Shown: positions 12,718 to 46,215, numbered from the stretch's first letter. The stretch is DNA of 64,000 nt from a virus (IMGVR_UViG_3300044655_000343:870-64869); one strand, 5' to 3'. Translations and numbers: made by a program. The notes: a model not told the origin generated them from the sequence alone.

Positions 12718-12750
12718 ACTTTTGTTTCTCCGATAAGTGTTTTACTTTAG

Positions 12751-26354: not shown

Positions 26355-26367
26355 TAGCCCCAACTAT
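26355..26367 (-). promoter_or_regulatory. Putative phage RNAP promoter motif ATAGTTGGGGCTA (copy 4, phiOR-like position)
   Basis: Overlaps the stop codon of the giant gene and points into the AT-rich end region. Confidence 0.65.
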
Positions 26368-29300
26368 TGGGCATTATCTAAGAGATCCCCTAGGGGACCT
26401 GATACACCCTTTGACATGTCTTCATACCGGACTCCGGCTTTGGCTTCCCTTGCCTTCTTAAGGGCTTGGGCTTCCAGCTCAAAGTTGCGAGGGGCAACCT
26501 TAGGTATCGGTGGTAACGACTGAGAAGAACTTTGTTTTCTTCCTTGGCTCTTTGCATAAGGATGTGGGTTTCTGTGAATCATATTCATGTAGGTTTGCAA
26601 TGTTCCCTTTTCTTCCAAAGCTCCTGAGACTTCTAGGGATCTAGCAGCCACAGCAATTGGACTTCGGTTTAACAAAGAGTTAACTGATGTGATATCACCA
26701 ACTCCCTTAGCAACCTTCATGTAATCAACTTCTTCATTACCTGTGATTCCTTCTACAACCTCACCAACGCCTCTACCAATACTTTCTGCAGCCCCGGTAG
26801 CAGCTCCCATACCGATGGACTGCATTGGACTACCATAGTACTTCCAAGTTCCACCAGACATGTAGCTCAGACCGCTTAAGCCAGACTCTAGAGCACCACT
26901 CCACATTCCCATGATAGGGGCAGACTTAGCTACACGAACAGCAAAGGCATGTGGGTTATCTGAGAACTCTTCAAGGATATCCTCGCCATCTCTTCCGGCT
27001 ATCCACTCACGGAGCAGACCGATAGTAGCATCCAGTGTTCCATAAAGAACTATGTTAGCAGCTAAGTACCGAAGTGTATCGCGGCTACCATAATCCAGTA
27101 TAACATTATCTTGGAACCCACGGATGTAGGAGCTAAGAGCATACCAGAGTTTACCAAGTGGTGTCTTGGAATCAATCGTAGTAACTCGACCTAAACCAAT
27201 AGGTTCAGGTGATGAGGTCTTAACCACCAGATCTTCTAGGGCAAGTCCATAAGAACTAATAGCTTGCTCTAATACTTCTGGTTTAATCCCAGCAACAGGA
27301 TGAGTCGTAGCATGCCAATATACATCAACCATGTTGTGTAGATTAACCCGACCTTCACCCTTCTTGTCAACCTTCTTAATTAAATATTCAAGATGTTTAA
27401 TCTTCTCGACAGAGTTTAAACCATACTTCATAAAGACTAGAGCTTCCTTTGGGTTGAACCCGAAGCCAGTCTTTCTAGCCAATGTGTAGAATTGTTTACG
27501 GAGCTGATTCTCTGCTCCTGCGCTTGTCTCTGCAGCTGCCATATAGTCCTGCATGAGTTTCATCATGGCAGGATCTTCTAGGGCGGTGAGTAGCTTTTGA
27601 ATTCTACCCTTCTTAATATGACCATAGATCATACGCTGTAGTCGGACCTTAGCCATTGATCTGGTAATATTGGTGATCGCTTGTAGCGAACCAATAGTCT
27701 CAGCAACTCTAGCTCCAGACTCTAGAACACGAACGCCTCTATCTATCAGACCCGTTGCAGGGCGAGGATTAATAAACTTACTCTTGATCTTAGATCCAAT
27801 TGTAGAATCTAATTCAAACGCTCCTTGATTTGCCTCACCCAAGAATCGGGAACTAAACTCATACTTAATATTCTCCAGACCGAAGATCATGTCTCCAAGC
27901 TCAGAGTTATTCATAAGAGAGTTCTTTGAGACTCGGAAGTCTCCGACCACAAACCTTAAAGCACTAATGAGATTACCCGGAAGATGTAAAGGATTTGACT
28001 TTAGCGTTTCCATCATAAGCTCAGGCAATGCTCCAAGGAAGTAACCAGTAGCAACCTTAACTTTCATCAATGCCAATAGGCTTCTTGCAGCCGCTTGATC
28101 CTGATAAGGCAGTATAGGAAGAGTATCTGCATTAGATGCATATTCATCCTTGAGTCTTTGAATACCTTCTGTAACATCTTGAAGTCTTGCAGCCAACTGT
28201 CCGGGTGTCCAGTTTTCAGCTTTAGCTATAGCCTCTATATCTCTTCTGGCTTCACTAGCTACATGAGGAAACACATCAGTGATTCTTACATTGCGAGAAC
28301 CCATGAGTCTATCAAGTTCTCTCTGGAAGATAAGTTCAAATACTCTACCATTCATAAAGTAATTATAAGACTCAGCTAGATTGGTTCTAATGTGTTTTAG
28401 AATAACAGGATCGGATAGTACTTCTTCAGGAATCAAACCGGGAACAGACAAAGCTGTCTCAGCTGAAGCATCAACAACCATTAGAGGTCTATCAATGTTA
28501 GTACCGGTGTTTCTCTGATACTCACTGTATGCACCCTTCTTTGTCTTGAAGTCTAACATCTCATTCATCTCAACTTCAATAAGCTCTCTACCTTTTAGGT
28601 AGTCTTGCCACCGTTGGGTATACAAAGACTTATTGCCGTTGACTGCTTCAATGTAACGAACTCTATCGGCATCAGCTAGTTCACTAATAACCGTAGGCAT
28701 TCGATATAATCTGATAATACCACTCTTAGGATCTGTAAGAACAAAGTGCTTTTGTGACTCAGCACCATTAGCTAGCTTAGCTAGAACACCCTTTTCACCA
28801 ACAGTAATTGGGTGCTCAGATACAAACAGACCCTTTAAAGTTTCAGGGCTAAAGCTCTGAGTTGACTCACCGGGTCTAAAGTCTCGCTTGCCAGCAAACA
28901 AGTCAGTACCTCTCGCCTCTTTTGATGGAGCAACATCTAGCCAACCAAGGACAATAATTGTATTGATATCTAAGATTGGTGACTTTAACTTACGAGTTCT
29001 ACGAGCCTTTACAAGACCCGCTACAAAGAGAGCACGATCAGTTGGACTCATAGCTGAGAAGCTTTCATGGTTCAACTGAACTGGCGCATACTTCATAGGA
29101 TCCAATGGCGTACCATCAGCAGCATTGCTATTAAACAAACCTGTCTCATTCTGTAAACCTAATATAGTTTGATTGGTCTGTCTTGTAATTTGTAACAACG
29201 AATTAGCTTCAACAGCAATGGACTTAGCTAGGTCTGGGGATAGACCAAGAGCAACAAGATCAGCAGGGGCAATAATAGTACCCTCTGAAAGCTTTGTATA

Positions 29301-32300
29301 ACTTAGTACACCAACAGCTCTAACTTTATCTAAAGCTAGTCCACTATCCTTTAACTTCTTATTAAGTAATAGTTGTTGTCTAGCAATACGAGTAATCATT
29401 CTGGCTTCATCAGACTTACATTGTCTTGCAGTTCGGAAAGCTTCCTTACCTGCTCCAACTAAATGTCCTGACTGTGCTCGGTTGTCTTCAAACAAACGAG
29501 ATAAGAATCGAATATTCTTCTGTAGATTTCTAATGGTCTTACCAGTCTGACTAGCAGCCTGTGTTGCATTAGCCATCCAACTATTCATTGCTCTCCACCA
29601 GTTTCTAGATGCTCGTTCACTACCACCAAAGATTGCTCCAATAAGACTTCCTTGACGCAAGAGCACTGATGCACTTTGTTCGGAGTCCTTTGTAGCAGTA
29701 TTAATGATTCTACCCATATCACCTCTAGGTGTTTCTTTTATAGGTTCTAATGGAATAGTTTCTGGCTTAACCGGAACTTCCTCACCAGCCTTAGGAGCTG
29801 GAGCTGGAGTTGGTTCAGGCGGTGTAGGCACAGGAGACTCTGCCTTAGTAGCATCACTTACTTTCTTTCGAGGAGTCTTAGACTCCTTGGCAACTAAAGT
29901 AAATGCAGTAGCATCCTCAGATGATTTAACAATATTTAATTCATCCAAAAGAATAGGAGGCATGTAAGCATCTCCAACTTCCTTAGCAGCAAGCACCATA
30001 AGCTGACGCTCTGATAGAGACTTGAAACCGGGAACAGTAGCAAGCTTCTGAACATTCTCAGCCCGTAGCTTATCTACCGAAATCCAGAACTTGGATATAC
30101 CCTCATCACCAAAGACAGCTCTGTTAGCTTCAACAATTGCTTTGTTGATAGTAACAAACTTTGTCCACAGCGACAACAGCGTAGGAGAATAAGTATCAAC
30201 TGCCTTATCTATATTCTTCATGCGTGTCCAGTAGTTCTTTAAGAATAACTTTAAGAACCCTTGGTCCATTCCATTGTCACGGAGTAGATCCTTATCATCA
30301 TTAACAACCCGCTCTATTCTTTCTGTCTCAGTAGTCTTAACAACTTCGGATACAGTCTTTCGTGGAGCAGGGGGAGCAATGCCACCTGTCTTAGTAACTC
30401 TAACTGGTGCGCCATCATTAGCTGCTGGTGGAACTGGGGTTGAGGGTAGGTCTTCCACAGGTGCTACAGCCGGAGCTGGAGTTGTGGTTGGTTCTACTAC
30501 CTCAACCTTAGGAGGTTCAACAACAGCTGTTACAGTCTGTACTGGCACACCTTTCTTAACCTTAATCTTGGTTACAGAAGGAACACCCGCCTTAACTTTA
30601 GTTTCAGTAACACCCTTAACAACTACAGGTGCATCAGCTTGAATTGGCATTACTACACCGTCTGAGAAGACGAGAGCATCAACGCCCATTCTATCTGCAA
30701 CCTTCATAGTGGATGCCATTTTAACTTCGTTAGCCATGAACTCAGCTGCGGTCATGGTCATTGGTAGTGGCTTCTTAGGAACAAACGACACAGCTTCTTT
30801 GGTTGACACATCACTGTTTTCAATGATGGCATCAACTTGCTTCTCTGGTCGTAGTACAGCTTCTGGAACATTACCAGTAACTTCCGAAGTAGCTCTAAAC
30901 AATGTACCCTCTTCCACCTTTGTAACAGGTGTCATAACTGGAGGTGCATCGGTCTTTTTACTTCTAGCAGCCAAGGCTTGCTTTTCTAGCAAGCGACTAC
31001 CAGCATCAACAGGAGTAGATACTGGCTTTGGAGTTGGCGCAGCTTCAGCTTGCTTAACAATCGCCTTAACTGACTCTGGCTTTTCTACTGCCTTAGTAAC
31101 AACCTGATCCATTTGCTTAACATGCGCTAGAAGAGAGTCTTGAGTTTCTACTAGCTTAGCCTTTGGATCATATTCAATAGCCTTACCAATAGCAACCATC
31201 TTATCAAATAATGCATTTCTGCGCGTGCCAATAGTTCTCTCACCAGTTTTCTTACCAAGAAGATCAACTGATTTAGAAGCTAATTCTTTATCGGACTCAA
31301 CAGTTAATAGGGCTTTAGCTAGTTGAACTTCTTCTGGAGTTAACAAAGTATTGTTTGTTAAATTATTCCATGTTAAAGCTGTATCAAACATAATAGCACT
31401 AAACTCTTTTTCAGTGGTAGGTTTAAATACCCCAGCATTAACTTTAGCTGCTGTTCCTTCTTGTGTAGCTCCTTCTTTAGTTTCTAAAGATTGAGCATTC
31501 TTATCTTTTCTAATCTCATCTAACTGTTCTCTTTTACGGATTGTTGAAGCAAGTCTAAGAAGTTGATTCTCAGTTTGTAATGTACCTTCTTTAATTTTTT
31601 CAATAAGATACTCTCTCTTATTATATAAAGCACTGATTTGAACTCTTGTGAGTTTCTTTTGTTCTAATGCTTTAATAATAACATCATCTAGATTATCTGC
31701 AGTAAGTTCTAGACTACCATCGGAAACTGCAGCAAGCGTTGCCTCTGCCTTTACCTTGGTTTCTTTTACTTTAGCTGCAGTTGCTTCTGCTGGAGTTTTA
31801 GGAGTAGTTACTCTTTTCTTCTTAGGTTTAGCACTTGGAAGTTCCCACTTACCAGAAGTTTCATTCAAGACAATAGCTCCAGTCTCAATCATCTTATGAA
31901 TACCAGCTAATGCTTTTTCAGGAGTCATGTCTGGAGTATCACTCATCTTTTGAATTAATGCTGCATCAATGTTCTTAAGCAAAGTAGGAATACTCAGATG
32001 AGTAATATCCTTGTTACTTAGGAATGCAGCAATCGAATCAATAGCAATGTCCTTGGAAGACCAAATAGGAAGATCCATATCCTTACGAATATCAGGAGTG
32101 AGTTTACTAAAGGTTCCTTCGTTGTAGATAGATTTAACTTGCTCTGGATTTAATGAAATCCAATAAGAAGTAGTAGGATCCATTTTAACTTCAATACCAT
32201 CATAACCTAATGTTTGTAGTGCTTTCTTTGTACCAGCATCTCTTCTTTTTTGTGCGCTATCAACAGACTCTCCAAAAATCTCTGAATGTGCGGTAACAAA

Positions 32301-35300
32301 GTCTTTAGAAGCTTGTTCAAACTTACCATCTTTGTTCTCATCTAACAACGATAAGATAATATTATATACAGGCATTTCCGGATTTCCTCCGGATAGTCTG
32401 TCTCTATTAATAACTAATGGATTTTCAACATTCATAAATAAAGGAAAGACTCTAGCACCACTTGGTTTATTTGGTTGTCTAGTACTTACAAAAGCAAAGT
32501 TGCTCGCTGTTTCTGGATTGTTAGTTGTATAAACACCTTCCCCAAACATACCGCCACCAACTTTAAACTCATTGAAATCAGCAAGTGTTGTTGTACCATG
32601 ATATACAATTAGGGGTTTACCGCTGGCATCAACTACTTTACTCGTACCAAAGAATTCTTTGAACTCAGGAGTTTGTGTAATCTCTTCAATGTAGGCACGG
32701 TTTAAACCTTCGGTGTCAAAGACACCTTCTGTCTTGAGCGTATCAATGTAATGCTTATGATGTACCAGAGTAACCAGATGAGCAATATCTGCAAAGCCAT
32801 TATTCTTATAATAGTCTTTTAAGGTATGCATCAACGGTTGGTTCAAGTATGGATCATTTCTTACTTGCTCTAGCAAAGCAAGTCTATTGGTTTCACTAAG
32901 ACTATTCTTAGCAGTTCCTTCAACAGACTTGTCTAGCAGTTCAATAAGCGAAGTAGCTTTGGTTCCCCAGAAGGTGTGTGAGTATCGACTAGGTTTATTC
33001 AGAGGATCTAAATAATTAGTAGCTTGCATCTGGGCTAGACCACGATCTTCATAAGTAGCAGCTAAGATGGTTTCAACACCACCCTGAACCGACTCAAAAG
33101 ATTCGGCTCCCATACTAAACAATCTTCGTTGCATGAACTTGATACGATCCTTTTTACTCATTCCAACTAGTTGTGCATAGTCTGGAGTAGTAAGTAAGAA
33201 GGCAGTCTTAATAAGCATAGATCCAAACTGGGTTTGCTTATATGTACTATAGACATCAACCAAGTCTTTCATATATACAGTAGGATTGCCCTTCATGTCA
33301 ATAGCTTGTCTGCCATTGCTCTTTAGGATTGTCAGTGCAACAATCAGAGAAGGATCTCTATCACCTCTCATAATGAGATTATATTCACCACTAGTTAACA
33401 TAGCTCTCTTAACAACTTCTGGACTATGCTCTGGTAGGTTCTTAACCATCCAGTCTTTTACAAAAGTATTAAACACATTGGGGGCAATATCACTTGATAC
33501 TGTCTGTGCATTTACTGCAGCTGCATATGCTCTTGATAAGTCTGGAACAGAGATAGCTTTAGATGCAGCCGTATCCATTTCAGTCAGACGATTAATCAAA
33601 CCATTAACAACAGTGTAATGATCTGAAGTATCAAACATACTAGCTGCAAGGATGATGCCATGTTCCATGCTGTTGATAATAGATCTAAAAGAAGATACTT
33701 CAATTGGAGCCATCTGTGACACAGCAAGCTGTGCTTCAGTAAATAGAATCTTTGAGAAGGACTGAACAAATACTTCTTCTGCATTCTGAAGATGATACGC
33801 ACTCAGGAAGTTAGAGGAGAGTAATGGATCAGTCATTTTAGCTACATCTAGATTCAATAAAGATGGTCCATAGTTTCTAGTGAGACTATTGTACATTTTT
33901 AAAGTGTCTACATAAATATCCGCTGTTGCACTTGATTGGAAGTAAGCATGCCCAATTTCATGTAAGACTGTAATAGCTCTTCGCTCTGAGTCTTCACCAA
34001 TCCATGAGCTGTTCATTACTATTGCATTAAGCTTTGGGTTGTAAGCACCGATTGTGGTGTACTCAATTTTCCCATCTGCATCTACAATTGAATCAATTTT
34101 AAAGTCTACTGCAAAAGCCTTGGAGTCAAAGTTTAAATGAACTACAGAAGCCAATAGAATAGCTTGGTCAATTTCATTAATGAATCCATTCTCTACTAGT
34201 TCATTGGTGAACTGAAAGAACTTCTCAGCATTAGCTTGGTTACCAGAGACTAATGAAGAGAACTTATTAATGTCATCCTTAAGTGCGTTGATCAAAGCCA
34301 TTCGCTTTGGATTCAACTTCTTAATCTTAAGGGCTTCCTTAATTGAGTCCGTCAATCTATTAGACGGTTTACGAGCCACACCACTGATGTCTGCCTTCAG
34401 GGCTTCAACAGTACTTGGAGTGACTGTGCCAGTAATAGCAACTTCAGTGATTGCAGCATCAAGGATATCTAAGACTTCCTTTGGAAGATCAGCACGGAGT
34501 TCAGCCTTCCTTGTGGGGTTAGCTACGATCTCTCGCGCTGTTCCCAGCAAGCTGACTGCAGCCTTTTCAGCTGCTTCATTCTTGGCTGCTAAGGAGATCA
34601 CGGTAGATCTAGCATCAGCTACATGTTCCGTAATAGTCTTAACAGGTTTCTTGACACCACCAAGACTATCACTGAGAGCCTTACGTTCTGGCTTGGACAG
34701 AGACTTAGTGTATTGTTTAATCATACTACGCCGCTGCGACTCCATAATCGCATAGGCTTTCTCACGAGCAGGGGTTAACTTACCTGCTTCCTTTTCCTTA
34801 AGTCTGGTTGTATTCAGATGTTCTTCGGATGCATAAAGAATCCGAAGTCTATCTGTAGTTCCCATGTCACCAAAGGTATCACCCGTCCCAGTAAGGGAAG
34901 CGCGTTCTTTAACCGCATCCCCCGCTGAGTTCTTACGAGATATCTCAGTAACAAACTCAATGATGTTGCTGAGAGTACCATTAGCACCTGTGCGTTCAGC
35001 ATAGGCTTGTCTGGTTTCGTTGTCCAGCCGTCTGGTCATAGGAACATCAGGGGTTGCTCTAGCGGCATCAGGAGTCACTGCAGCACGAGCATCAGCTCTA
35101 TTGACTGCAGTCTGGGTTTCATTACTCAACGTCTGTGCTGAGGGCTTTACACCCTCTAGTTCGGCTTCAGTAATGATCTTCTCATGGAGAGGTAGATCAA
35201 CTGCTACATCCTTACGACTTAACTTGCCTTTGTAGAATCCCAGAGCCTCACCAACGCTTGTACCTTCATAGGTAAAGCGTTTGTCTCCGGTCATACGAAC

Positions 35301-36761
35301 TACCGATTCCCCCAGAGGGGCAACATTGACACCCTTAAGTTTGTTTAGGAAAGCCCCAGCCGTACTACCTACAACTTGGGGTAGCACACCAAAGCCCAAG
35401 AAGCCGATTGCAAACCCCTCACCACCAGCCCAGCCAATGCTTGAAAGATCATAATCCTTCTGCATTTCTGGGTCAGCAAAGACAAGGGCATTAGCATAAG
35501 CAATTTGTTTTTCTTGTCTGGTAGTCTCTTGCAAGGCTGCACCAACTCCGAAGATTGCACCCGTTAGAGTAGAGCCACCAATCAAGCCAAGATTCTTGGC
35601 ATAGGTTGGACTTATTCCCAGAGGAAGCTTAGCAATTGTTGAAGCAACATTACGAGCTGCTCTAAAGACAGTTAAGCCTGTAGTAGGAGCTGCGGCTGCT
35701 GTAGCAACTAAACTACCCACACCACCAGTAAGAACTGTGGCTCCAAGTTCTAAAGCAATAAACGGAACGGTATCCGAAGAATTTATAATACCACCAATTA
35801 AATTATCTCTTATTAGTCGCCCACTGTCCAGATATCCGGGAGCATAGGCTTCAATTCTTTTTTGAATATCACCCTTAAAAATGATCTCACCAATTCTAAA
35901 ATTAGCTTCATCTTCATTGAGTGCAGTTCTAATTGTACTTGGTGATATACCATTTTCAATAAAACCCTGTTGGACGGTAGGATTTAAATTACTCCACCAC
36001 ACAGCAGGATCAAAAGTTAAATCAACTCGGTTACGAATCTTTAGAATATCATCAATGCCTCTAGCAATCTTAGTATTCTTAGTAGGATTATAAGCTGCAT
36101 TGTATCCATCATATAGAGCACCGGCGGCTCCATAAGTATAAGCATTTAGAATCTTACCATAGACTTCTGCTTGTGAGCGGAAGGCATCAACCATAGAGAA
36201 ACCAAGATCCGTTTTAGTAACCTCGCTTGCCTTTGCATAGGCAAGCTGGTACATTATAGCATTCACTCTTTTTTGTGTTGGAGTAGGATTCTCAGGATCT
36301 TGTGGTTCTTGTTTAGCAATAGGTAACAACTTAGAAAGTGTGGAGCGAAGGTTATCTTGCACTTCAGGAGTTAACTGACTAGCTCCAAACTCTACCGGAG
36401 CTAAGGGATCATCTTTCTGACCCATTAGAATACCACGCTGAAATGCACCCAATGAATAATCTTGGAACTCATTAGGTCCCATACCTAGATACTCCGCAAT
36501 CTTTTGTGCATAGCCCTGTGCGCTACCTGTGCTAATAGACTCTGCTTGTGATAGAGCATATAAGTTATTGTAAGTATCTTTTTGGGTGTTAGGCTGTGGT
36601 CCCCAAAAACCCGGTTCATGCATTCTTGCAATATCAACATAGTTAGGAGCACCCTGATAAGCCATCAAGAATTGATTCCCAGTTGTGTAGTATTGTGGTT
36701 GCAGTCTCGGTGTCTCTGGTGTCTCCGGTACTATAGGAAAGTTGTTAGTGTAATTAATCAT
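26364..36761 (-). CDS. Giant internal virion (ejection, gp16-position) polyvalent protein, 3465 aa
   Basis: Last of four consecutive internal-virion-like genes. Contains hydrophobic Gly/Ala helices, an HEIGH zincin motif, a YHGT...GVYTT...GYDGI ART-like domain and Pro-rich linkers. Confidence 0.75.
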   Translation of the reverse strand: MINYTNNFPIVPETPETPRLQPQYYTTGNQFLMAYQGAPNYVDIARMHEPGFWGPQPNTQKDTYNNLYALSQAESISTGSAQGYAQKIAEYLGMGPNEFQDYSLGAFQRGILMGQKDDPLAPVEFGASQLTPEVQDNLRSTLSKLLPIAKQEPQDPENPTPTQKRVNAIMYQLAYAKASEVTKTDLGFSMVDAFRSQAEVYGKILNAYTYGAAGALYDGYNAAYNPTKNTKIARGIDDILKIRNRVDLTFDPAVWWSNLNPTVQQGFIENGISPSTIRTALNEDEANFRIGEIIFKGDIQKRIEAYAPGYLDSGRLIRDNLIGGIINSSDTVPFIALELGATVLTGGVGSLVATAAAAPTTGLTVFRAARNVASTIAKLPLGISPTYAKNLGLIGGSTLTGAIFGVGAALQETTRQEKQIAYANALVFADPEMQKDYDLSSIGWAGGEGFAIGFLGFGVLPQVVGSTAGAFLNKLKGVNVAPLGESVVRMTGDKRFTYEGTSVGEALGFYKGKLSRKDVAVDLPLHEKIITEAELEGVKPSAQTLSNETQTAVNRADARAAVTPDAARATPDVPMTRRLDNETRQAYAERTGANGTLSNIIEFVTEISRKNSAGDAVKERASLTGTGDTFGDMGTTDRLRILYASEEHLNTTRLKEKEAGKLTPAREKAYAIMESQRRSMIKQYTKSLSKPERKALSDSLGGVKKPVKTITEHVADARSTVISLAAKNEAAEKAAVSLLGTAREIVANPTRKAELRADLPKEVLDILDAAITEVAITGTVTPSTVEALKADISGVARKPSNRLTDSIKEALKIKKLNPKRMALINALKDDINKFSSLVSGNQANAEKFFQFTNELVENGFINEIDQAILLASVVHLNFDSKAFAVDFKIDSIVDADGKIEYTTIGAYNPKLNAIVMNSSWIGEDSERRAITVLHEIGHAYFQSSATADIYVDTLKMYNSLTRNYGPSLLNLDVAKMTDPLLSSNFLSAYHLQNAEEVFVQSFSKILFTEAQLAVSQMAPIEVSSFRSIINSMEHGIILAASMFDTSDHYTVVNGLINRLTEMDTAASKAISVPDLSRAYAAAVNAQTVSSDIAPNVFNTFVKDWMVKNLPEHSPEVVKRAMLTSGEYNLIMRGDRDPSLIVALTILKSNGRQAIDMKGNPTVYMKDLVDVYSTYKQTQFGSMLIKTAFLLTTPDYAQLVGMSKKDRIKFMQRRLFSMGAESFESVQGGVETILAATYEDRGLAQMQATNYLDPLNKPSRYSHTFWGTKATSLIELLDKSVEGTAKNSLSETNRLALLEQVRNDPYLNQPLMHTLKDYYKNNGFADIAHLVTLVHHKHYIDTLKTEGVFDTEGLNRAYIEEITQTPEFKEFFGTSKVVDASGKPLIVYHGTTTLADFNEFKVGGGMFGEGVYTTNNPETASNFAFVSTRQPNKPSGARVFPLFMNVENPLVINRDRLSGGNPEMPVYNIILSLLDENKDGKFEQASKDFVTAHSEIFGESVDSAQKRRDAGTKKALQTLGYDGIEVKMDPTTSYWISLNPEQVKSIYNEGTFSKLTPDIRKDMDLPIWSSKDIAIDSIAAFLSNKDITHLSIPTLLKNIDAALIQKMSDTPDMTPEKALAGIHKMIETGAIVLNETSGKWELPSAKPKKKRVTTPKTPAEATAAKVKETKVKAEATLAAVSDGSLELTADNLDDVIIKALEQKKLTRVQISALYNKREYLIEKIKEGTLQTENQLLRLASTIRKREQLDEIRKDKNAQSLETKEGATQEGTAAKVNAGVFKPTTEKEFSAIMFDTALTWNNLTNNTLLTPEEVQLAKALLTVESDKELASKSVDLLGKKTGERTIGTRRNALFDKMVAIGKAIEYDPKAKLVETQDSLLAHVKQMDQVVTKAVEKPESVKAIVKQAEAAPTPKPVSTPVDAGSRLLEKQALAARSKKTDAPPVMTPVTKVEEGTLFRATSEVTGNVPEAVLRPEKQVDAIIENSDVSTKEAVSFVPKKPLPMTMTAAEFMANEVKMASTMKVADRMGVDALVFSDGVVMPIQADAPVVVKGVTETKVKAGVPSVTKIKVKKGVPVQTVTAVVEPPKVEVVEPTTTPAPAVAPVEDLPSTPVPPAANDGAPVRVTKTGGIAPPAPRKTVSEVVKTTETERIERVVNDDKDLLRDNGMDQGFLKLFLKNYWTRMKNIDKAVDTYSPTLLSLWTKFVTINKAIVEANRAVFGDEGISKFWISVDKLRAENVQKLATVPGFKSLSERQLMVLAAKEVGDAYMPPILLDELNIVKSSEDATAFTLVAKESKTPRKKVSDATKAESPVPTPPEPTPAPAPKAGEEVPVKPETIPLEPIKETPRGDMGRIINTATKDSEQSASVLLRQGSLIGAIFGGSERASRNWWRAMNSWMANATQAASQTGKTIRNLQKNIRFLSRLFEDNRAQSGHLVGAGKEAFRTARQCKSDEARMITRIARQQLLLNKKLKDSGLALDKVRAVGVLSYTKLSEGTIIAPADLVALGLSPDLAKSIAVEANSLLQITRQTNQTILGLQNETGLFNSNAADGTPLDPMKYAPVQLNHESFSAMSPTDRALFVAGLVKARRTRKLKSPILDINTIIVLGWLDVAPSKEARGTDLFAGKRDFRPGESTQSFSPETLKGLFVSEHPITVGEKGVLAKLANGAESQKHFVLTDPKSGIIRLYRMPTVISELADADRVRYIEAVNGNKSLYTQRWQDYLKGRELIEVEMNEMLDFKTKKGAYSEYQRNTGTNIDRPLMVVDASAETALSVPGLIPEEVLSDPVILKHIRTNLAESYNYFMNGRVFELIFQRELDRLMGSRNVRITDVFPHVASEARRDIEAIAKAENWTPGQLAARLQDVTEGIQRLKDEYASNADTLPILPYQDQAAARSLLALMKVKVATGYFLGALPELMMETLKSNPLHLPGNLISALRFVVGDFRVSKNSLMNNSELGDMIFGLENIKYEFSSRFLGEANQGAFELDSTIGSKIKSKFINPRPATGLIDRGVRVLESGARVAETIGSLQAITNITRSMAKVRLQRMIYGHIKKGRIQKLLTALEDPAMMKLMQDYMAAAETSAGAENQLRKQFYTLARKTGFGFNPKEALVFMKYGLNSVEKIKHLEYLIKKVDKKGEGRVNLHNMVDVYWHATTHPVAGIKPEVLEQAISSYGLALEDLVVKTSSPEPIGLGRVTTIDSKTPLGKLWYALSSYIRGFQDNVILDYGSRDTLRYLAANIVLYGTLDATIGLLREWIAGRDGEDILEEFSDNPHAFAVRVAKSAPIMGMWSGALESGLSGLSYMSGGTWKYYGSPMQSIGMGAATGAAESIGRGVGEVVEGITGNEEVDYMKVAKGVGDITSVNSLLNRSPIAVAARSLEVSGALEEKGTLQTYMNMIHRNPHPYAKSQGRKQSSSQSLPPIPKVAPRNFELEAQALKKAREAKAGVRYEDMSKGVSGPLGDLLDNAQ

Positions 36762-36798
36762 TCATATCCTTTCTGGGGGCAATGCGCCATAAAGAGGA

Positions 36799-39700
36799 TT
36801 ACTTTTCTAGCAATCGTTTTGTAATTGTTTTAATCCAGAGTTGGTCTGGAGTATATTTAGTTGTTCTACTCTGTGGGAGTAACCAATGCATTAAGAAGTC
36901 TTGTCGGAGATCAATAAATTGTTTAGGATCTCTTAACTTCATTTCAAATTCTTTTGTAGCTTCTTGTCGCTTCCTGTTGCGTTCTTGTGGGGCAGAAGCT
37001 GGTTCACCAAGGACTGACTTAACTTGGCTTTCTTGATAAACATTCCAAGCCTTGAGGGCTGAGTCTATCCATTGCTTTTCTTCGGAAGGAGCCAGCGGGA
37101 AGGAAGTAGAATCAACACCAGCAACAGCTTCATCAAAAGTCATACGAACTTTGGAACCTTGACGTTCCTTAAGAAGTCTGTCTCTTTTAATATTAAGTCT
37201 GATTTGATATTCCAGAGCAGCGGGTTCCCACTTCTTGGCTACAACATCAGCAATAACTTTCATGTAAGTATCTTTTGAAACACCATACATAGGTTGTTTA
37301 GTACCCTTAAGAACTTCAGCTATAACTTTGGTTGACAGATCTTTATCAAATGCAGTCAGAAGAAAGTTTGCTGAGTCTTGTGAAAGTTTAACATCTTCAT
37401 CGCGTGTTCTAAGAATAGCTACTGGGTCACCAACAGTTTGTGCTAATACAGAATCTATATCACCACCTACCATTGCTTCTTTAAGTAATGAAGCTTTGAG
37501 GTTATCATAACCTTGCTGCATCATATTTTGTCCTGCTTGTTGGAAAGCATTCGGACCTGTTCCAGTTTCTTTCATTGCATTAGGAACAGCCATAGCTGCA
37601 GCGGGAAGTGCATCTACTGCATCTGATAGAGCAGGTATTAATTCGCTAGCCGCTGTGTCCATAGCCTGTCCAAATGTTTTAGCCTTGTATGGCTTAATAT
37701 ATCTAGAGTTACCCGGAAGGGCATACTGTTGTGGAAGATCAGACCATGCCGGTGGTAGTTCACCTGTATCAAAATACAGACCAGTGAAATCATAGGTCTT
37801 CATTTCAAGAAGACTGGCAGGGGAATTTAAACCAACTAAACGGTTGTTATCCATAAACTCTATAAAAGATTTCTTAAAGGCAGCAATCTGTGAGGAAGGT
37901 AGAACTGTTTTCTTTTGGATAGATGCTTCAATTGGCATAGCAGGATTACGACCAAGCATTTCTAGGCTAGTTTGTTTAGCCGCTTCTTTGTTTTTATTAT
38001 CTGTTAATATAGAACCAAAGACGCTGTTGAATCGTGCAGTATAAGCAGCTTCATCTTCATTGGGTTTACGCCCTTCAAAGTAAGGCTCCATCTCTGTGGT
38101 ATCAACATCTTCCCCAGCACGATAGACATAGAATACATTGCTATCCTTTTGCTTCCAAATATTGCTACCACCACGAGCTGAGCTATCCATATTACGAACA
38201 AACCTATCTGAGTTTGGTCGATATAGTGACATACCCGCAGCTGGACCAACTTGAACTACTGAATCACCCTCGTGAATTGGCATAGCAGGAGCACCTGATG
38301 CTACAGATCTTTTATAAGCATTCTCTGCAGCAGCCTCCATAAAGTCTGATTGGTCTTGTCTGTTCTCTAACTTAGCTACGGCAACGCCAAGAGTGTAAGA
38401 GATAAAATCAGCAACAGTAGTAATACCTTTTTTCTTTGCGTCTTCAAACATTATGCCAAAGTTCTCTTGACTAAAGACAGCAGTTTTTTTCTCTCCGGTT
38501 ATATCGTTCTGTAGTAGATACTTAATTTGTTTGAGGCGAGGATCCGCTTCAACAATATCCATAATCTTATCAGCATTAACAATGAAGATGGTGCTTGCCT
38601 CATCTGCAGTCATGTTTGCTAGTAAGAGCTTGTCTTGATTAGCAAACGCTCTAGCAACAGCCTTGACAGCTTGTGGCTCTGCTTGTCTCATAATCACACC
38701 CATCTCTTGTGGTGCTAGTCCCGCAGCTTCACTGCTAGGTACAATCGTATAAGAAGGAGTCTTAGTTATTCTATAGCTCTCTTGGTTTTCTAATGCCATG
38801 CGATATGCACCATCTCGATCTTCTGATGCAGGTACTCTCAATATAGGAGTACCATCATTTTTACGAGGAGTGTACACACCATTAGAATCAATCTGAGAAG
38901 CGGGAGCAAGGAATGGAAGCACATCTATATCACCCATCATAATCTGTCGGTATCCCAGAGGAAGACCGCCAGCTGGTGAGGTCATAAATGCTTGCTCTCT
39001 TGGGCTAACACTATATTCGATTCCCCATTCTGACATGGGTGGAATCTTTGCATAACCCTTTTTGACTGCTGCTAGTTGTGCGGCAAAGTCTGCTTCTGCT
39101 GTTGCTCCTACTACTGGAACATATCCATTGAGTTTCATTACAGCAGCACTACAAGCAACGGCAAGTCTACCTTGCTCACCCACTGGAATAATTCTAGAAA
39201 CTTGTGTTTTATCTTCAAAACCATTTGGTTGATTAACAACCATGTTATCTAAGAAAGAAGTGTAGAGTCGTTCATTCAAATCAGGAACTAAACCCTTTGC
39301 AGTTTTGATTGCTGAGTCTCTAATACCTATTGGGTTGGTCATATTGTCTGTACTATATGAACTTGCAAAGTGTGTATTAAATATAGTGAGCTTTGTTACT
39401 TCTGGCTTTAATCTGTTTGTGTAAGATAAATTCGGACTATCAGTAGAAACCATACTACCATCAGCACCCTTTACAGCGGTAATACCCCGGTGGTTTGCAA
39501 GTGTCTTATTAAACGTAGCAGCAAACGCAGCTACCTTACTTGCATCTAAATCACCAGCTCGACCTTCAACTAGAAACTGTCGTCTATTAGCTTCAACATA
39601 AGCCATAGCTCGTAGAGCAGTTCCAAGTAATTGTGGGTTGTTTTTTAAAACACGAACAAGACTCTCAGGTCCACCCGCATCCTTTATAGTATCTCCATTA

Positions 39701-41118
39701 AGTTCTACCAGTAAATCGGTTAGTTGCTTATCATCCAGACCCAATGCTTGTCCAACAAGAGGGCGAACAATGTTATTTAGATATACTAATGTAGTGGCTT
39801 TAGTTGCAGCACCTTTTATATAAGGGCTGTCTTGTTGTGAGTAAGTTAGAATCTCATTGACTACACCAATATCTGCTGCGGTTATGTTTTTTAATTCGGA
39901 TAGAGTTTGCATTGTGCCGCCCTTTTGAACAGCATCTCTAAGGACTATAGCCATGCCCATATCTTCTTCATTCAATCCGATTTCTTTTAGGTTGTCAGAT
40001 AGTGTTGAAACAGGAAGTTGATTTAGCATCAGACCAACACGAAGCATTTCTTGTGGTGATCTTGTAGCAATTGGCTTACTAAATACAAACTTAACAACAT
40101 CCGCTGAATCTGGAGCCAGCATACCCTGATGAGATGCAATAGCTGAGCGATCTCTATATTCCGCATAAGGACTAAACTGAGCATAGTCAACAAGTTGCTT
40201 AGTCTCATTTTCATTTAAGTCATCTTGACTTGCTGCAGGATTCCAGAGCCATTGACCCGTAGCTTGATCTAGCATTACTACTTGGTTACCAGCAGCATCT
40301 ACCTTTGGTGTAAGTTTACCATCTTTTAGTTGTGTAAAAAAGTAAGGTGTATTAGTTGGATCGGTTGGAGAAACTGGGGGATATTGAGATCCTACAGCAT
40401 TCAATGGAGAAGCTCCAGCTAATACCAGATTTGCAGTATCACCAGCTTTATAAGGGACTGCGCCAAACTTTGCTTGCTTAGCATCAAAGTCTTTCTTCTG
40501 CTTACCAATGTTATTGAATTGAGCATCAAACAAAAGTTTGGTTGACGCAGCAGAGATGTCTCTATCGGATGAACGGACTCTTAAAGCAAGATCTTGGTAC
40601 TTAGAACCTAGGGTCTTAATGTCTAGTTCTGGATCCCAGTAATCAATGGCTGGCTCAAATAGACCACCCTTGTTATTCTCTACAACTTCTCTAGCTTTTC
40701 CATCCCACTCACTTTTTAAGGTATTAATTTTTGTAATTAATCCATCCATGATTGGCTGATCTACGGCTTTACCTGTAGCTCTAGCTTCACTTTGTTTTGT
40801 ATTCAGTTCAATATAGGCATCATTTAATTTGGTTGAGTATACATCTTTAAGTTCTGCAATCGCATTACCTTTAGATGAAATCAAATAATCAACGACAGCA
40901 CCAAAGGTTTGATTGGCAATCTTAAAGCCACTTTCACCTAATGCATACCAATCAATATCTGAACCTTCAACTCCAATAGGTTGCTGTGCAAATTGGGTTG
41001 GAGTTTCCTTGTACATATTGATGGACTCAGGCGGCACAAAGCCAGCCTTTGGTCCTTCTTCAAAGACGGTCTGTTGTAATGGATTAAGCTCAGGTGCTGG
41101 CATTGGTTGTATCTCCAA
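36799..41118 (-). CDS. Internal virion protein (gp15-like position), 1439 aa
   Basis: Large helical ORF between the gp14-like gene and the giant gene; no catalytic motif recognised. Confidence 0.6.
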   Translation of the reverse strand: MEIQPMPAPELNPLQQTVFEEGPKAGFVPPESINMYKETPTQFAQQPIGVEGSDIDWYALGESGFKIANQTFGAVVDYLISSKGNAIAELKDVYSTKLNDAYIELNTKQSEARATGKAVDQPIMDGLITKINTLKSEWDGKAREVVENNKGGLFEPAIDYWDPELDIKTLGSKYQDLALRVRSSDRDISAASTKLLFDAQFNNIGKQKKDFDAKQAKFGAVPYKAGDTANLVLAGASPLNAVGSQYPPVSPTDPTNTPYFFTQLKDGKLTPKVDAAGNQVVMLDQATGQWLWNPAASQDDLNENETKQLVDYAQFSPYAEYRDRSAIASHQGMLAPDSADVVKFVFSKPIATRSPQEMLRVGLMLNQLPVSTLSDNLKEIGLNEEDMGMAIVLRDAVQKGGTMQTLSELKNITAADIGVVNEILTYSQQDSPYIKGAATKATTLVYLNNIVRPLVGQALGLDDKQLTDLLVELNGDTIKDAGGPESLVRVLKNNPQLLGTALRAMAYVEANRRQFLVEGRAGDLDASKVAAFAATFNKTLANHRGITAVKGADGSMVSTDSPNLSYTNRLKPEVTKLTIFNTHFASSYSTDNMTNPIGIRDSAIKTAKGLVPDLNERLYTSFLDNMVVNQPNGFEDKTQVSRIIPVGEQGRLAVACSAAVMKLNGYVPVVGATAEADFAAQLAAVKKGYAKIPPMSEWGIEYSVSPREQAFMTSPAGGLPLGYRQIMMGDIDVLPFLAPASQIDSNGVYTPRKNDGTPILRVPASEDRDGAYRMALENQESYRITKTPSYTIVPSSEAAGLAPQEMGVIMRQAEPQAVKAVARAFANQDKLLLANMTADEASTIFIVNADKIMDIVEADPRLKQIKYLLQNDITGEKKTAVFSQENFGIMFEDAKKKGITTVADFISYTLGVAVAKLENRQDQSDFMEAAAENAYKRSVASGAPAMPIHEGDSVVQVGPAAGMSLYRPNSDRFVRNMDSSARGGSNIWKQKDSNVFYVYRAGEDVDTTEMEPYFEGRKPNEDEAAYTARFNSVFGSILTDNKNKEAAKQTSLEMLGRNPAMPIEASIQKKTVLPSSQIAAFKKSFIEFMDNNRLVGLNSPASLLEMKTYDFTGLYFDTGELPPAWSDLPQQYALPGNSRYIKPYKAKTFGQAMDTAASELIPALSDAVDALPAAAMAVPNAMKETGTGPNAFQQAGQNMMQQGYDNLKASLLKEAMVGGDIDSVLAQTVGDPVAILRTRDEDVKLSQDSANFLLTAFDKDLSTKVIAEVLKGTKQPMYGVSKDTYMKVIADVVAKKWEPAALEYQIRLNIKRDRLLKERQGSKVRMTFDEAVAGVDSTSFPLAPSEEKQWIDSALKAWNVYQESQVKSVLGEPASAPQERNRKRQEATKEFEMKLRDPKQFIDLRQDFLMHWLLPQSRTTKYTPDQLWIKTITKRLLEK

Positions 41119-42139
41119 ACATATTAGGGTACTTAGACATAGCTGTATAAATACTTTCGGTTAGTTCTTTTGTTGTTTTAATTCGACCAGCTGCAATCTC
41201 CCCACGAAGACCACGATATACTTGGTCCTTAGATGAAGACTCTGGGTTAACTGCAAAGGCTTCATTCCATCTATCAATGTTATAATGACCTGACTCTAAA
41301 AGTTTAGAGACTTCCATTGCTGATTGCTTCTCTTGTCTAGAGATAACACTGCGTTGGGAATAGATCTTATTCTCAATAGCTTCTTTGATTGGCTGTGTGG
41401 CTGTTTCTTTAACTAAGACTTGCTCAGCAAACGAAGGAGAACCATAAGCATCATTTGGTAAAGCTTGCTTACGATCCTGTAGACCAAAGCTTGGGATGAA
41501 GGTTCCATTCTGATTGTAGATACCAATACGACCATTAACTACCGAAGCTACATCAAACAAGTTCATTTGTTCTAGCTTCATAAAGTCAGCGGAATGTTGG
41601 TCAGTAGATACATCAGGGTCTAGTTCATTCTTCATAAGGAATTGATTAACCTTACCACTTAATGAATTGGAGTAGACCTGACTTGCTTTACTAAAGTTAG
41701 CCGTAGCCACTACAGTAGATAGCTTAGCCAACTCCGGGGCTAGGGCTGTTCTTGCCCACTCAGGGGAGTTAGCCATACGATCTCGTAGGAAGAACTCCTT
41801 ACTGGAGACTCCACTGATATTGTTTAACTCAATGAGACTGGTGTTAATAAAGTCACTGACTGCCCCATCCTTACCAGATGGGTGCATCTTTTCGTATTCC
41901 TTCCAGAAGTAATTTCTACTGTTGTTGGAAAGACTGTCGAGGGAATTATTATTCTTCCAGTAATTAAATCTGTTCTGTGCGTTAGTAGGATACATCTTAG
42001 TTGCTAACTCTGTGATCTGATTAATCTTAGCAATGTCTTGCTTGTCAATCATGTCCTCAGTGTTAACTGCCTCAACGGTATTCGTATTTGTTTCAGTTGC
42101 AATCTGTTGCAATGAAGAGTATAAATCTTTTTTAGCCAT
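41090..42139 (-). CDS. Putative internal virion protein, 349 aa
   Basis: TAATG-coupled to the gp14-like gene; helical composition. Confidence 0.5.
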   Translation of the reverse strand: MAKKDLYSSLQQIATETNTNTVEAVNTEDMIDKQDIAKINQITELATKMYPTNAQNRFNYWKNNNSLDSLSNNSRNYFWKEYEKMHPSGKDGAVSDFINTSLIELNNISGVSSKEFFLRDRMANSPEWARTALAPELAKLSTVVATANFSKASQVYSNSLSGKVNQFLMKNELDPDVSTDQHSADFMKLEQMNLFDVASVVNGRIGIYNQNGTFIPSFGLQDRKQALPNDAYGSPSFAEQVLVKETATQPIKEAIENKIYSQRSVISRQEKQSAMEVSKLLESGHYNIDRWNEAFAVNPESSSKDQVYRGLRGEIAAGRIKTTKELTESIYTAMSKYPNMFGDTTNAST

Positions 42140-42858
42140 TAGAAACCCCTTATTGCTTGTCTAGAAGCTAATGCTGATCCAGATAGAGAAGCATCGCTTC
42201 CATTGCCGCCACTATTACTGCCACCACCATACTGCATCTGAGCTTGGATACCAACAGATGCTCCCTGCAGACCAGCCTGAATTAAACCAGTAGTCAATGC
42301 AGTTGAGGAGTTGTTAGCAATACCACCTTTAGATGGGATGAAGACTCCAAGGTCTGGAGCAAAGGCATTGCCTCGCTGTCCTAGTCTTGTTTGCTGTTGT
42401 GTAATGATGTCTTGATAGGCACTACGATGGTTTAGCTTGAGGGCTACCATGTTGCTACCTAGGGCTTCAATGTTCTGACGAAGCATTGCTCTAGCAGTTC
42501 CACTGTTTGCAGTGATACCACGGGATGTCATTGAAGAGATGAACTGTGCATTAACTTGTGAGGTTTGCTTGCTTAGTGTACTCTTTTGATTTGAGAATGA
42601 CTTGTCTAAATAGTACTCTGCTAGTGCTCGTTCAGTTGCAGCACCCTTTTCAATCTGAGCACTACGCTGAAGGTTGGCTTGAAACTCACGCATAACATTT
42701 CTGTCTTGCGTTGCCTTTTGCCATTGGTTCTGAAAGTTTGCATTCCTTTGCTGGATCTCTGCTGCCTGTGCTGCGGCATCTGCTTGGCTAGATGCACCTA
42801 ATGCACCCATGACTCCAGAGGCTAATGCCATACCGCCCATTGCAATTGCTACTCCCAT
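42139..42858 (-). CDS. Internal virion protein (T7 gp14-like)
   Basis: Hydrophobic Gly/Ala N-terminus (MGVAIAMGGMALASGVMGALG), Gln/Ala coiled coil, RGITANSG, hydrophobic C-terminal helix. Confidence 0.75.
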   Translation of the reverse strand: MGVAIAMGGMALASGVMGALGASSQADAAAQAAEIQQRNANFQNQWQKATQDRNVMREFQANLQRSAQIEKGAATERALAEYYLDKSFSNQKSTLSKQTSQVNAQFISSMTSRGITANSGTARAMLRQNIEALGSNMVALKLNHRSAYQDIITQQQTRLGQRGNAFAPDLGVFIPSKGGIANNSSTALTTGLIQAGLQGASVGIQAQMQYGGGSNSGGNGSDASLSGSALASRQAIRGF

Positions 42859-43346
42859 TTGAGTCCTCTTTCTAAGAAGGATAAAATATCTGGTATTGAA
42901 TCTGTAAGATCCTCAGTATTTACCCGCATTATTTTATTTTGATTTTGTTTATTAAGCCACTGATTTAAATAAGTAGCATGCTCGTAGAATATATCCACTG
43001 GGTTGATTAGATCAAGAAAGATAGGATGTAGTTCACACTCGTCTTTAAAGACTTTATATATACTATACATCTGAGCCAGCTTATCTTTTCTTTCTAAGAC
43101 AACAATACGAGATATTCTGTTTGTGTTAATGGTGATTAAATTAGGATACCAAAGTTTAACAATGTGGTTATTAAGTTCTTTGGGATTGAGTGTGTTTGTT
43201 TCCCAGTATCCTTCAGGATTATGTTTGGGAACAACTATGTTATTGAATGCCTCCCCTATGATGGGGAGTCCTGCCTTCTTAGCACTCTGCATTACAAATG
43301 AAGTACCAGTACGGGGACCAATACCTGTTACAACAGCTATACTCAT
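42849..43346 (-). CDS. Sulfotransferase-like P-loop protein
   Basis: VVTGIGPRTGTS (5'-PAPS-binding-like), NPEGYWE, and VLERKDKLAQMYS (3'-phosphate-binding R...S-like, as in Stf0-type enzymes). Confidence 0.7.
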   Translation of the reverse strand: MSIAVVTGIGPRTGTSFVMQSAKKAGLPIIGEAFNNIVVPKHNPEGYWETNTLNPKELNNHIVKLWYPNLITINTNRISRIVVLERKDKLAQMYSIYKVFKDECELHPIFLDLINPVDIFYEHATYLNQWLNKQNQNKIMRVNTEDLTDSIPDILSFLERGLKWE

Positions 43347-45028: not shown

Positions 45029-45151
45029 GGGCTTCCTTTCTAAGCCCCCTAGAAGGGGCTATAAACGGTTTCTCAGTCAGTGGGCTATCTAGCTAGCCTA
45101 TGTTCATTCAAATGGTTCCTAAGGGCATTCCTGCCCCTAGGAACCGTTGTG

Positions 45152-45376
45152 TTAAATCTGGGTAGACTTAAACTTGAATGGCATCTTAGCCTTCATAGCA
45201 CTCTCTAGGGTATCTAGGGAGGTAGAAGGGATGCCATCTAGAGCTTCCCGGTTGTCGTTAACCACGCCACGAATGACTTGGTATAGACCGGGGGTACTCT
45301 TTGTATCGTCCTGAAGATCGTCTAGAAGACGCTCAATAAGACGAGCATTTAATTGAGTGATAAGTTCTTTATTCAC
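45152..45376 (-). CDS. terS: Terminase small subunit (T7 gp18-like)
   Basis: 74 aa directly upstream of terL; LLDDL...TPGLYQVI..VVNDN resembles gp18. Confidence 0.75.
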   Translation of the reverse strand: MNKELITQLNARLIERLLDDLQDDTKSTPGLYQVIRGVVNDNREALDGIPSTSLDTLESAMKAKMPFKFKSTQI

Positions 45377-45486
45377 TTCTTCTTGAATAGCTCAGGTAGC
45401 TTACTTACTGGAACGACTGATCCAGCAATATAGCCAACCACGCAAAGAAGACATGCAAACCAAACTGAACCGATAAATGATGCCAT
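45373..45486 (-). CDS. 37-aa membrane peptide (lysis cassette)
   Basis: MASFIGSVWFACLLCVVGYIAGSVVPVSKLPELFKKK; AAGGA RBS; single TM helix with a basic tail. Confidence 0.65.
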   Translation of the reverse strand: MASFIGSVWFACLLCVVGYIAGSVVPVSKLPELFKKK

Positions 45487-45490
45487 AATA

Positions 45491-45961: not shown

Positions 45962-46215
45962 TATTTCCTTTCAAGCATCTCAAGGCGATACCGTAGTTCC
46001 TTTAGCTCAGTCATTACAGCCACCATGTTGCGTCCTAATTCAATATCAGTCTTAACTAGATCTCTAGTTATGTCTTTTAATAAAATAAGTTCTGCCATGC
46101 TGTTGTCGATTTGAGCCTCCCTTTTGCCTAGGCGTATAATAACAGTAACTACCCCAATGGTGAGAATAGCCAATTGCAATACCGAAACATAGATACCAAT
46201 GTTATTCTCATGCAT
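45961..46215 (-). CDS. Holin-like membrane protein
   Basis: N-terminal TM helix followed by a coiled coil; directly after the tail fibre gene. Confidence 0.55.
   Translation of the reverse strand: MHENNIGIYVSVLQLAILTIGVVTVIIRLGKREAQIDNSMAELILLKDITRDLVKTDIELGRNMVAVMTELKELRYRLEMLERK

Follow-up and report, generated by a model that had tools for sequence, protein, structure and literature searches.

A candidate ejectosome of a T7-like podophage that ends in a giant polyvalent protein with an exchangeable cassette slot

The T7 ejection proteins gp14, gp15 and gp16 (internal virion proteins B, C and D in Autographiviridae) measure 196, 747 and 1318 amino acids (aa), 2261 in total according to the coordinates of the T7 record, where genes 13-16 sit between those of the nozzle and the fibre. 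In N4 (Schitoviridae), the third ejection protein is the 3500-aa virion RNA polymerase (vRNAP), whose enzyme domain stands between a membrane-spanning N-terminal and a C-terminal domain (PMC13434306), and the same role is given to the 3500-aa vRNAP in work on DEV. Polyvalent proteins were defined by Iyer et al. in 2017, who proposed that they are injected with the DNA and noted N4-vRNAP-like proteins with zincin and ART domains (PMC5512222). Phi24B encodes gp47, a 2811-aa polyvalent protein found in virions by mass spectrometry and proposed to be an ejection protein (bioRxiv 10.64898/2026.04.10.717836), and T4 Alt, cited by Iyer et al., is an ART that is packaged in the head, injected with the DNA and modifies host proteins (PMC5512222). 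Here we analyse a 64,000-nucleotide stretch of viral DNA (IMGVR_UViG_3300044655_000343:870-64869, the window throughout this text), in which a block of four consecutive genes, encoding p239, p349, p1439 and a protein of 3465 aa that we call the giant, is the best candidate for the ejectosome of the phage.

The window holds all but 869 bases of one 64,869-bp virus contig. Its source is a 64.9-kb T7-like podophage from a metagenome, known from metagenomic contigs alone, and the minus strand holds every gene of at least 120 aa with a family assignment. The T7-like backbone comprises replication genes (single-subunit RNA polymerase, primase-helicase, family A DNA polymerase (PolA) and 5'-3' exonuclease) and structural genes (scaffold, major capsid protein, tail tube A, nozzle and the large terminase, TerL). 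TerL is of the T7 type, with 35-38% identity to that of marine and other Autographiviridae, and a megablast of positions 26364-46000 against 50,697 phage records gave no match and no near DNA relative. We consider it probable that in the clade of this T7-like podophage the ejectosome genes moved downstream of TerL and grew, with p239, p1439 and the giant being the equivalents of gp14, gp15 and gp16; p349 is an extra conserved partner. The genes of the block are the following.

42139-42858, minus strand: p239, 239 aa, candidate gp14-like, outer-membrane component of the ejectosome.
41090-42139, minus strand: p349, 349 aa, no family.
36799-41118, minus strand: p1439, 1439 aa, candidate gp15-like periplasmic-tunnel protein.
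26364-36761, minus strand: the giant, 3465 aa, an N-terminal extension of about 2200 residues plus a gp16-sized C-terminal unit.

The four open reading frames (ORFs) are co-directional and lie after TerL. Neighbouring genes from TerL to p1439 abut or overlap; 37 nucleotides then separate p1439 from the giant. An initial annotation of this DNA had listed four consecutive genes of 239, 349, 1439 and 3465 aa, making about 5500 aa against about 2260 in T7; we found the genes exactly where it placed them and a sum of 5492 aa against 2261, and only p1439 is probably shorter. The listed p1439 ORF begins at a TTG overlapping the preceding gene, and its relatives start at an ATG five codons further in (P0035 has 1434 aa), so the real start is probably at 41103, for a protein of 1434 aa. 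Regarding the giant, which we label P0001, its relatives keep one unbroken frame of 3100-4340 aa (20 relatives, P0002-P0021, and 23 of 52 representatives), and it is therefore neither a chance frame nor an assembly artefact. Around the 3' end of the giant gene, a scan for promoters and terminators counted about as many as shuffled sequence would give (4 vs 3.2; 5 vs 2.1).

As in the T7 ejectosome, a small, a middle and a large gene follow each other in the same order in the late operon, with gp14-like features in p239 and a predicted gp16-type fold in the C-terminal unit of the giant. Unlike in T7, sequence similarity is not detectable, the genes come after the terminase instead of between nozzle and fibre, there is an extra 349-aa gene, and the middle protein has roughly double the length of gp15. 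The giant itself is 2.6 times the largest gp16-like protein (1337 aa) among 14 podophages (PMC8954989) and, in place of the transglycosylase of T7 gp16, has a zincin-like module and an ART. In the window the nozzle and fibre genes are direct neighbours, and the order is nozzle, fibre, 156-aa ORF, TerL, 165-aa ORF, p239, p349, p1439 and giant. The order fibre, p156, TerL, (p165), p239, p349, p1439, giant is kept in all 11 related loci that were picked by length out of 30, and in each of the 11 p349 stands between the gp14-like and gp15-like genes. The giant is the last and largest gene of this gp14-like, gp15-like, gp16-like series among the late genes, at a post-terminase position that is non-canonical.

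The giant ends in the following unit.

26367-30164, minus strand: gp16-like (internal virion protein D type) unit, residues 2200-3465 of the giant, with residues 2340-3465 modelled.

A phmmer search with residues 2340-3465 against 1.84 billion representatives retrieved 52 proteins, 23 of them of at least 3000 aa and matching at or near their C-terminal end. Two shorter relatives, P0070 (1274 aa) and P0075 (1328 aa), have a Met start and align over nearly their whole length to giant residues ~2200-3465; PHROGs and Pfam found nothing in these two or in P0080 and P0083, and Pfam found nothing in P0091 and P0096. The AlphaFold model of residues 2340-3465, built from a 15-row alignment, reached a pLDDT of 61.9 and a pTM of 0.64. 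Of the BFVD structures, Foldseek matched 22 to this model with E values of 1e-3 or lower (best 2.9e-8), and most of these alignments span about 1000 or more columns. Eight of the 22 bear informative names and all eight are internal virion or large lysozyme-, transglycosylase- or matrixin-named phage proteins, the other 14 being unnamed; among the named ones are the internal virion proteins of Bordetella BB8, Burkholderia JG068 and phiKT, and the matches also include a transglycosylase-bearing protein of Aeromonas 25AhydR2PP. The N-terminal model of the giant, which is just as helical, served as a control and got a single, unnamed BFVD match at E 1e-3 or better. When the C-terminal model was compared by VIA-align with 48,161 PDB representatives, the top row was 8vb2_A, from the pre-infection ejectosome of PhiM1 (Z 7.3, 285 residues, root mean square deviation 5.0), and the rows below it had 145 aligned residues or fewer. 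8VB2 is the PhiM1 ejectosome entry of PMC11440229, and from the chain length we infer that its chain A is the tetrameric gp16-type protein. PDB sequence profile searches with three family alignments gave nothing. According to the modelling, the C-terminal unit has the fold of the gp16-type internal virion proteins; there was no significant profile match to T7 gp16, so we file the unit as gp16-like by fold and not by sequence.

Regarding the smaller genes, p239 has a hydrophobic Gly/Ala-rich segment at its N-terminus, and 26 of its 30 nearest Atlas clusters carry PF24072 T7_gp14 (score 0.96, 208-213 of 256 features). The Atlas works with protein-language-model features and gives leads without alignments, and shuffled proteins reach the level of p239 about once in 100. 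Pfam (E 0.1 or better), PHROGs and NCBIfam returned no match for p239, and hhalign found a weak 23-column match to T7 gp14 (probability 4.7%) and nothing significant against gp32 of CRP-804. These language-model look-alikes suggest a resemblance of p239 to gp14. For p1439, the nearest named Atlas cluster is Phage_T7_Gp15 (0.90, 152 features, under the comfort level of the tool), Pfam gives no gp15 (PF26212) match and hhalign against CRP-804 gp33 gave a probability of 0.5%; p1439 is a gp15-like lead only, weaker than that from p239 to gp14. Its family is narrow (14 clusters), and sliding identity shows the first ~60-240 residues conserved and the rest hypervariable. A PDB profile search with the p1439 family alignment matched a lysozyme (E 1.7e-4), which we traced to a single row, P0048, a distant homologue with a GH24 lysozyme at its C-terminus. 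Residues 11-999 of p1439 align to P0048 (24% identity, E 2e-55), and the lysozyme lies beyond that part, so no lysozyme is demonstrated in the p1439 of the window, whose C-terminal 440 residues are its own and without family. The peptidoglycan hydrolase on the middle protein of this relative parallels K1E and K1-5, in which gp15-like middle ejection proteins carry a lysozyme (PMC8954989). p349 has 45 homologous clusters, all of 346-363 aa. The initial annotation took all four genes as internal-virion-like: three of them map, as candidates, onto the T7 ejectosome, and p349 has no assignable identity.

Several results weigh against this assignment. The BFVD matches compare predicted with predicted structures and have TM-scores of only 0.14-0.35, the Z of the PhiM1 match is below the level that the tool considers safe for helical proteins (8), and when the C-terminal model was run through Foldseek on PDB structures, nothing reached E 1e-3. 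Both models of the giant are of middling confidence (pLDDT 62 and 65). By sequence, Pfam, PHROGs and NCBIfam, the last with five proteins, gave no link to gp14, gp15 or gp16; hhalign against T7 gp16 and CRP-804 gp33 and gp34 gave probabilities of 1.5% or less; BLASTP of p239 against T7 gp14 gave nothing, and the 45 clusters of p349 hold no Pfam family and no informative name. Besides, the N-terminal part of T7 gp16 is periplasmic (PMC8954989), and the same topology here would leave the ART of the giant without NAD+.

The two large genes vary together. Between the window and the related locus L014, identity is 95.7% for TerL, 91.5% for p165, 93.8% for p239 and 94.8% for p349, and it is 27% for p1439 and 35% for the giant. 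Beyond the giant, on its far side, the genome of L014 (G001) matches the DNA of the window at 89-97% identity in the polymerase and early genes and at 81-86% where it adjoins the giant. The left breakpoint lies inside p1439, whose first 60 residues are 80-92% identical and which has fallen to about 25-35% by residue 240. Divergent p1439 and giant genes amid conserved flanks point to a co-varying block of ~14.5 kb behind a conserved p1439 N-terminal domain. In evolution the gp15-like and gp16-like genes behave as a single unit of exchange, and such behaviour would be expected if the two proteins interact and are subject to host-specific selection.

The N-terminal extension of the giant contains, in this order, three hydrophobic segments, a zincin-like HExxH...E module, a slot for exchangeable cassettes and short modules separated by linkers.

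35346-35762, minus strand: three Gly-rich hydrophobic segments, residues 334-357, 391-410 and 450-472, from a hydropathy scan.
33474-34214, minus strand: zincin-like module, residues 850-1096 (HEIGH at 934-938, Glu996), from motif conservation and the model.
32079-32711, minus strand: ART-PolyVal cassette, residues 1351-1561, from PF18760 and the slot boundaries.
30165-32078, minus strand: short conserved modules between Pro/Lys-rich linkers, residues 1562-2199, from a linker scan and conservation blocks.

The hydrophobic segments are candidate membrane-inserting elements. The region of residues 334-472 is conserved in the family, with a model pLDDT below 50 over 318-391, and in a simple hydropathy scan no segment of the gp16-like unit passed the same threshold. 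The Pro/Lys-rich linkers lie at residues 1627-1684, 1909-1948, 2045-2136 and 2278-2358, and Pfam, PHROGs and NCBIfam gave no family match for residues 1562-2199. The stretch between the zincin-like module and the slot (1100-1350) is likewise without assignment.

In the zincin-like module, 12 family members, close and at mid-distance, all share H934, E935 and H938, Glu996 is invariant or nearly so, and 14 distant members (18-31% identity) all have the HExxH and its downstream E. An HExxH occurs at positions 904-1092 in 20 of the 21 representatives of at least 3000 aa. Sequence families give hints of what it may be: a weak match to the metalloprotease family phrog_87 (E 1.2e-3) in the giant and Peptidase_M78 at E 0.048 in the relative P0015. 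Pfam gave no match to the module at E 0.1 or better in P0001, and the PDB profile search reached only MMP-16 at E 2.9, which is no match. In the AlphaFold model of residues 1-1100 (pLDDT 64.7, pTM 0.40), a three-stranded sheet (strands 886-917) is followed by a helix (925-944) that carries HEIGH, and this predicted placing of the motif on a helix after a beta sheet agrees with a zincin. Searches of the PDB with the N-terminal model gave helical-hairpin matches only, and neither these nor the single BFVD match assigned it a fold.

The ART is the module with a clear family. PF18760 matches at residues 1378-1548 (E 4e-19, 70.2 bits against a cut-off of 31.2), and in an alignment with 11 other ART-PolyVal modules, H1388, Y1411 and D1521 fall on the conserved H, Y and D, the active-site set described for ART-PolyVal in PMC5512222. 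The ART and zincin-like modules in one chain support calling the giant, from its sequence, a polyvalent protein in the sense of Iyer et al. 2017. The ART sits in a slot bounded by two conserved junction motifs, at residues ~1350 and ~1562. Counting over the 20 relatives, we found the slot in four states.

ART only: 5 of 20 (P0002, P0004, P0013, P0016 (fragment), P0019).
A 264-280-aa module with its own HExxH, plus ART: 2 of 20 (P0003, P0011).
The HExxH module alone: 2 of 20 (P0007, P0012).
Empty: 11 of 20 (P0005, P0006, P0008, P0009, P0010, P0014, P0015, P0017, P0018, P0020, P0021).

The ART is thus present in 7 of the 20 close relatives, and it also occurs in 3 of 14 distant members, in which Pfam found no other family. 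Between the second HExxH cassette of the slot and the core zincin, no relationship was detected (E 0.69). Between P0001 and P0004, residues 2340-2830 are 99-100% identical and the ART only 34-47%; a divergent ART beside a nearly identical body means that the cassette has been exchanged and not merely lost. P0015, P0017 and P0018, all with an empty slot, have at residue ~1096, directly behind the zincin-like module, an unrelated insert of ~1100 aa, which marks a second hot spot and is 74-91% identical among the three. Pfam found nothing in the alternative cassettes or in this insert.

These results bear on what the initial annotation had said of the modules. Its view of the giant as a polyvalent protein is supported, by PF18760 and the conserved HExxH...E module, and so is the idea, raised there for comparison among relatives, that modules are swapped, with slots that are empty or hold an ART or an HExxH module. 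The Pro/Lys-rich linkers that it described are present, with only two enzyme-like modules and no further family detected; its 'several' host-takeover or anti-defence activities are reduced to these two, of which the ART is optional.

When residues 467-3465 were compared by tblastn with the 50,697 phage records, the ART module alone matched, in 13 records. In Caulobacter Rauchvirus phages, the ART module is in a 2039-aa protein beside a 758-aa one, and both are annotated as 'lysis protein'.

Caulobacter phage Jess A (L007): 2039-aa ART protein at 7291-13410 and preceding 758-aa protein at 5025-7301, just upstream of a tail protein gene.

By position, the two Jess A proteins look like ejection proteins, and the 'lysis protein' label may mislead.

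If the block is an ejectosome, a few copies of the giant would be packaged on the portal with the other core proteins, and these would leave the virion before the DNA does. p239, p1439 and the giant would be the outer-membrane, periplasmic and inner-membrane/cytoplasmic parts of the channel, as in T7, with the gp16-like body and the hydrophobic segments helping to build it. The zincin may cut the giant into working pieces or attack an envelope component, and the ART would modify a cytoplasmic host target before phage gene expression. An ART needs NAD+ and must therefore reach the cytoplasm; by analogy, N4 vRNAP offers a possible model for the topology, a hydrophobic N-terminal domain followed by a cytoplasmic enzyme.

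One could argue that the zincin, rather than processing the giant itself, is an envelope-breaching peptidase for peptidoglycan peptides or lipoproteins that replaces the T7 transglycosylase, within a mainly periplasmic extension. None of the four proteins has a lysozyme or transglycosylase domain that Pfam, PHROGs or NCBIfam could detect, the zincin is the sole enzyme-like module kept family-wide, and it is N-terminal to the gp16-like unit, as the transglycosylase is in T7 (PMC8954989); besides, the phi24B authors propose an envelope-breaching role for the gp47 metallopeptidase (bioRxiv 10.64898/2026.04.10.717836). On the other hand, the weak family hints point to M78/ImmA-type proteases (phrog_87, Peptidase_M78 in P0015 and the label that one source gives to P0007), the ART in the same stretch needs cytoplasmic NAD+, and Iyer et al. 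favour autoprocessing for the zincins of polyvalent proteins (PMC5512222). We regard this peptidase role as unlikely, though a serious contender.

An N-terminal extension that is mainly structural in a packaged giant (a spacer, or DNA-spooling or capsid-filling mass for a larger head), to which the enzyme-like modules contribute little, seems improbable. In favour of this reading, the family searches recognised little of the extension, 13 of the 20 close and 11 of the 14 distant relatives lack the ART, and PhiM1 ejectosomes are in contact with spooled DNA (PMC11440229). Yet the catalytic motifs of both modules are intact and conserved, and what the slot holds in other relatives is alternative enzyme-like cassettes, not random sequence.

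It is still harder to see the giant as no virion protein at all, and a late-expressed cytoplasmic effector or superinfection-exclusion factor is very improbable. The position of the genes outside the canonical T7 place would fit such a protein, but its C-terminal unit is of gp16-type fold in the models, it follows gp14-like and gp15-like candidates in T7 order, the phage is without another gp16 candidate, and it closes the run of tightly spaced genes that begins at the terminase. There is scarcely any chance that the middle part of the giant hides a very divergent N4-type vRNAP: the fold models cover residues 1-1100 and 2340-3465 and leave room at 1100-2340, but hhalign against N4 gp50 gave nothing, the tblastn search met no N4-like phages, Pfam found no polymerase family in the giant, and the phage encodes its own T7-type RNA polymerase.

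With the block read as a T7-like ejectosome, its giant can be placed beside the other described proteins. Like the polyvalent proteins of Iyer et al., it joins a PolyVal-family ART and a zincin-like peptidase in one polypeptide among virion genes, with predicted injection alongside the DNA. Unlike them, it has no detected LPD, MuF, helicase or methylase domains (in Pfam, LPD and MuF families were absent from P0001, P0003, P0007, P0012, P0015 and the 14 distant members), and the carrier here would be an ejection protein of gp16 type, in a phage that has a T7-type RNA polymerase; a term search of the available text of PMC5512222 met neither 'gp16' nor 'internal virion'. With N4 gp50 it shares a size of ~3500 residues, a place as the last gene of a small-middle-giant ejection operon and the presumed delivery of an enzyme with the DNA. 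It differs in that sequence searches, the only kind used here, found neither an RNA polymerase domain nor sequence similarity, in that the cargo is a zincin and an optional ART, and in that a separate T7-type RNA polymerase is encoded. Phi24B gp47, also from a podophage, is likewise giant and polyvalent and has a metallopeptidase; compared by description, gp47 has LPD and MuF-C, and neither an ART nor a gp16-like body is mentioned in the available part of its preprint. T4 Alt, in contrast, is a separate small myovirus protein of another ART family and is not part of a channel protein.

The initial annotation saw in the block a candidate for an undescribed system. Injected polyvalent proteins, N4 vRNAP and phi24B gp47 are already in print, and with these three precedents we consider it a variant of a published idea. 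In the literature covered (titles and abstract openings, with most subscription journals and supplements outside), we found no case in which a T7-like phage has polyvalent modules fused to a gp16-type protein, and no description of a slot and block exchange as here.

The remaining features of the window are the following.

43343-45028, minus strand: large terminase (TerL), from its family assignment.
42849-43346, minus strand: 165-aa ORF, which overlaps the TerL stop and is overlapped by the 239-aa gene.
46226-51259, minus strand: fibre, 1677 aa, with a T7 fibre N-terminal domain and a YadA-type coiled stalk.
3-1418, running on to genome base ~674, minus strand: portal, 537-aa ORF, assigned by inspection alone.
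58218-61877, minus strand: 1219-aa protein, phrog_5939 'tail protein' (E 6e-111), with five repeated stretches and no Pfam family.
61877-62824, minus strand: 315-aa protein, no match.
63175-63972, minus strand: 265-aa protein with the glycine-rich domain PF21722.
2861-4750, minus strand: B12-dependent (class II) ribonucleotide reductase, auxiliary gene.
12058-12717, minus strand: ThyX thymidylate synthase, auxiliary gene.
18458-19438, minus strand: DUF932 protein, adjoining the RNA polymerase gene on its 5' side on the coding strand.

The 165-aa ORF has a Gly-rich, P-loop-like motif close to its N-terminus; Pfam and NCBIfam gave no match, and PHROGs none at E 0.001 or better. It has a homologue in 8 of the 11 related loci and is absent from L017, L020 and L027, and is therefore an accessory gene within the late operon. 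The fibre is 41-73% identical between relatives, against 92-99% for its flanking genes, and is divergent like the two large ejection genes. Portal and scaffold, which no gene separates in T7, here have three genes between them. The contig showed neither a terminal repeat nor overlapping ends, and the portal is at one contig end and the other structural genes at the other, so the record is probably permuted or slightly incomplete.

Four features of the locus stand out: the carrier of gp16 type, the size of this protein, the slot for cassettes and the joint exchange of two large ejection genes. Tentatively, and with more doubt than for the ejectosome itself, it is possible that the ejectosome works as a plug-in effector platform: slot enzymes would be interchangeable (ART, a second zincin-like module and, elsewhere, the ~1100-aa module), the 14.5-kb allele would be traded, as tail fibres are, among phages that are nearly identical elsewhere, and the proteins that enter first would, alongside the receptor-binding proteins, set host range or evasion of defences. 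Assuming a T7-like stoichiometry, four giants and eight p1439 would add nearly 3 MDa to the head, a load that would bear on the amount of protein that passes a T7-type tail. If the reading is true, a channel-forming gp16 homologue itself carries the injected enzymes, and research on polyvalent early effectors and the structural biology of podophage ejectosomes would meet in one protein. The slot states and the two-gene exchange in a conserved backbone would then be a natural experiment that lets one ask what selects on ejection proteins.

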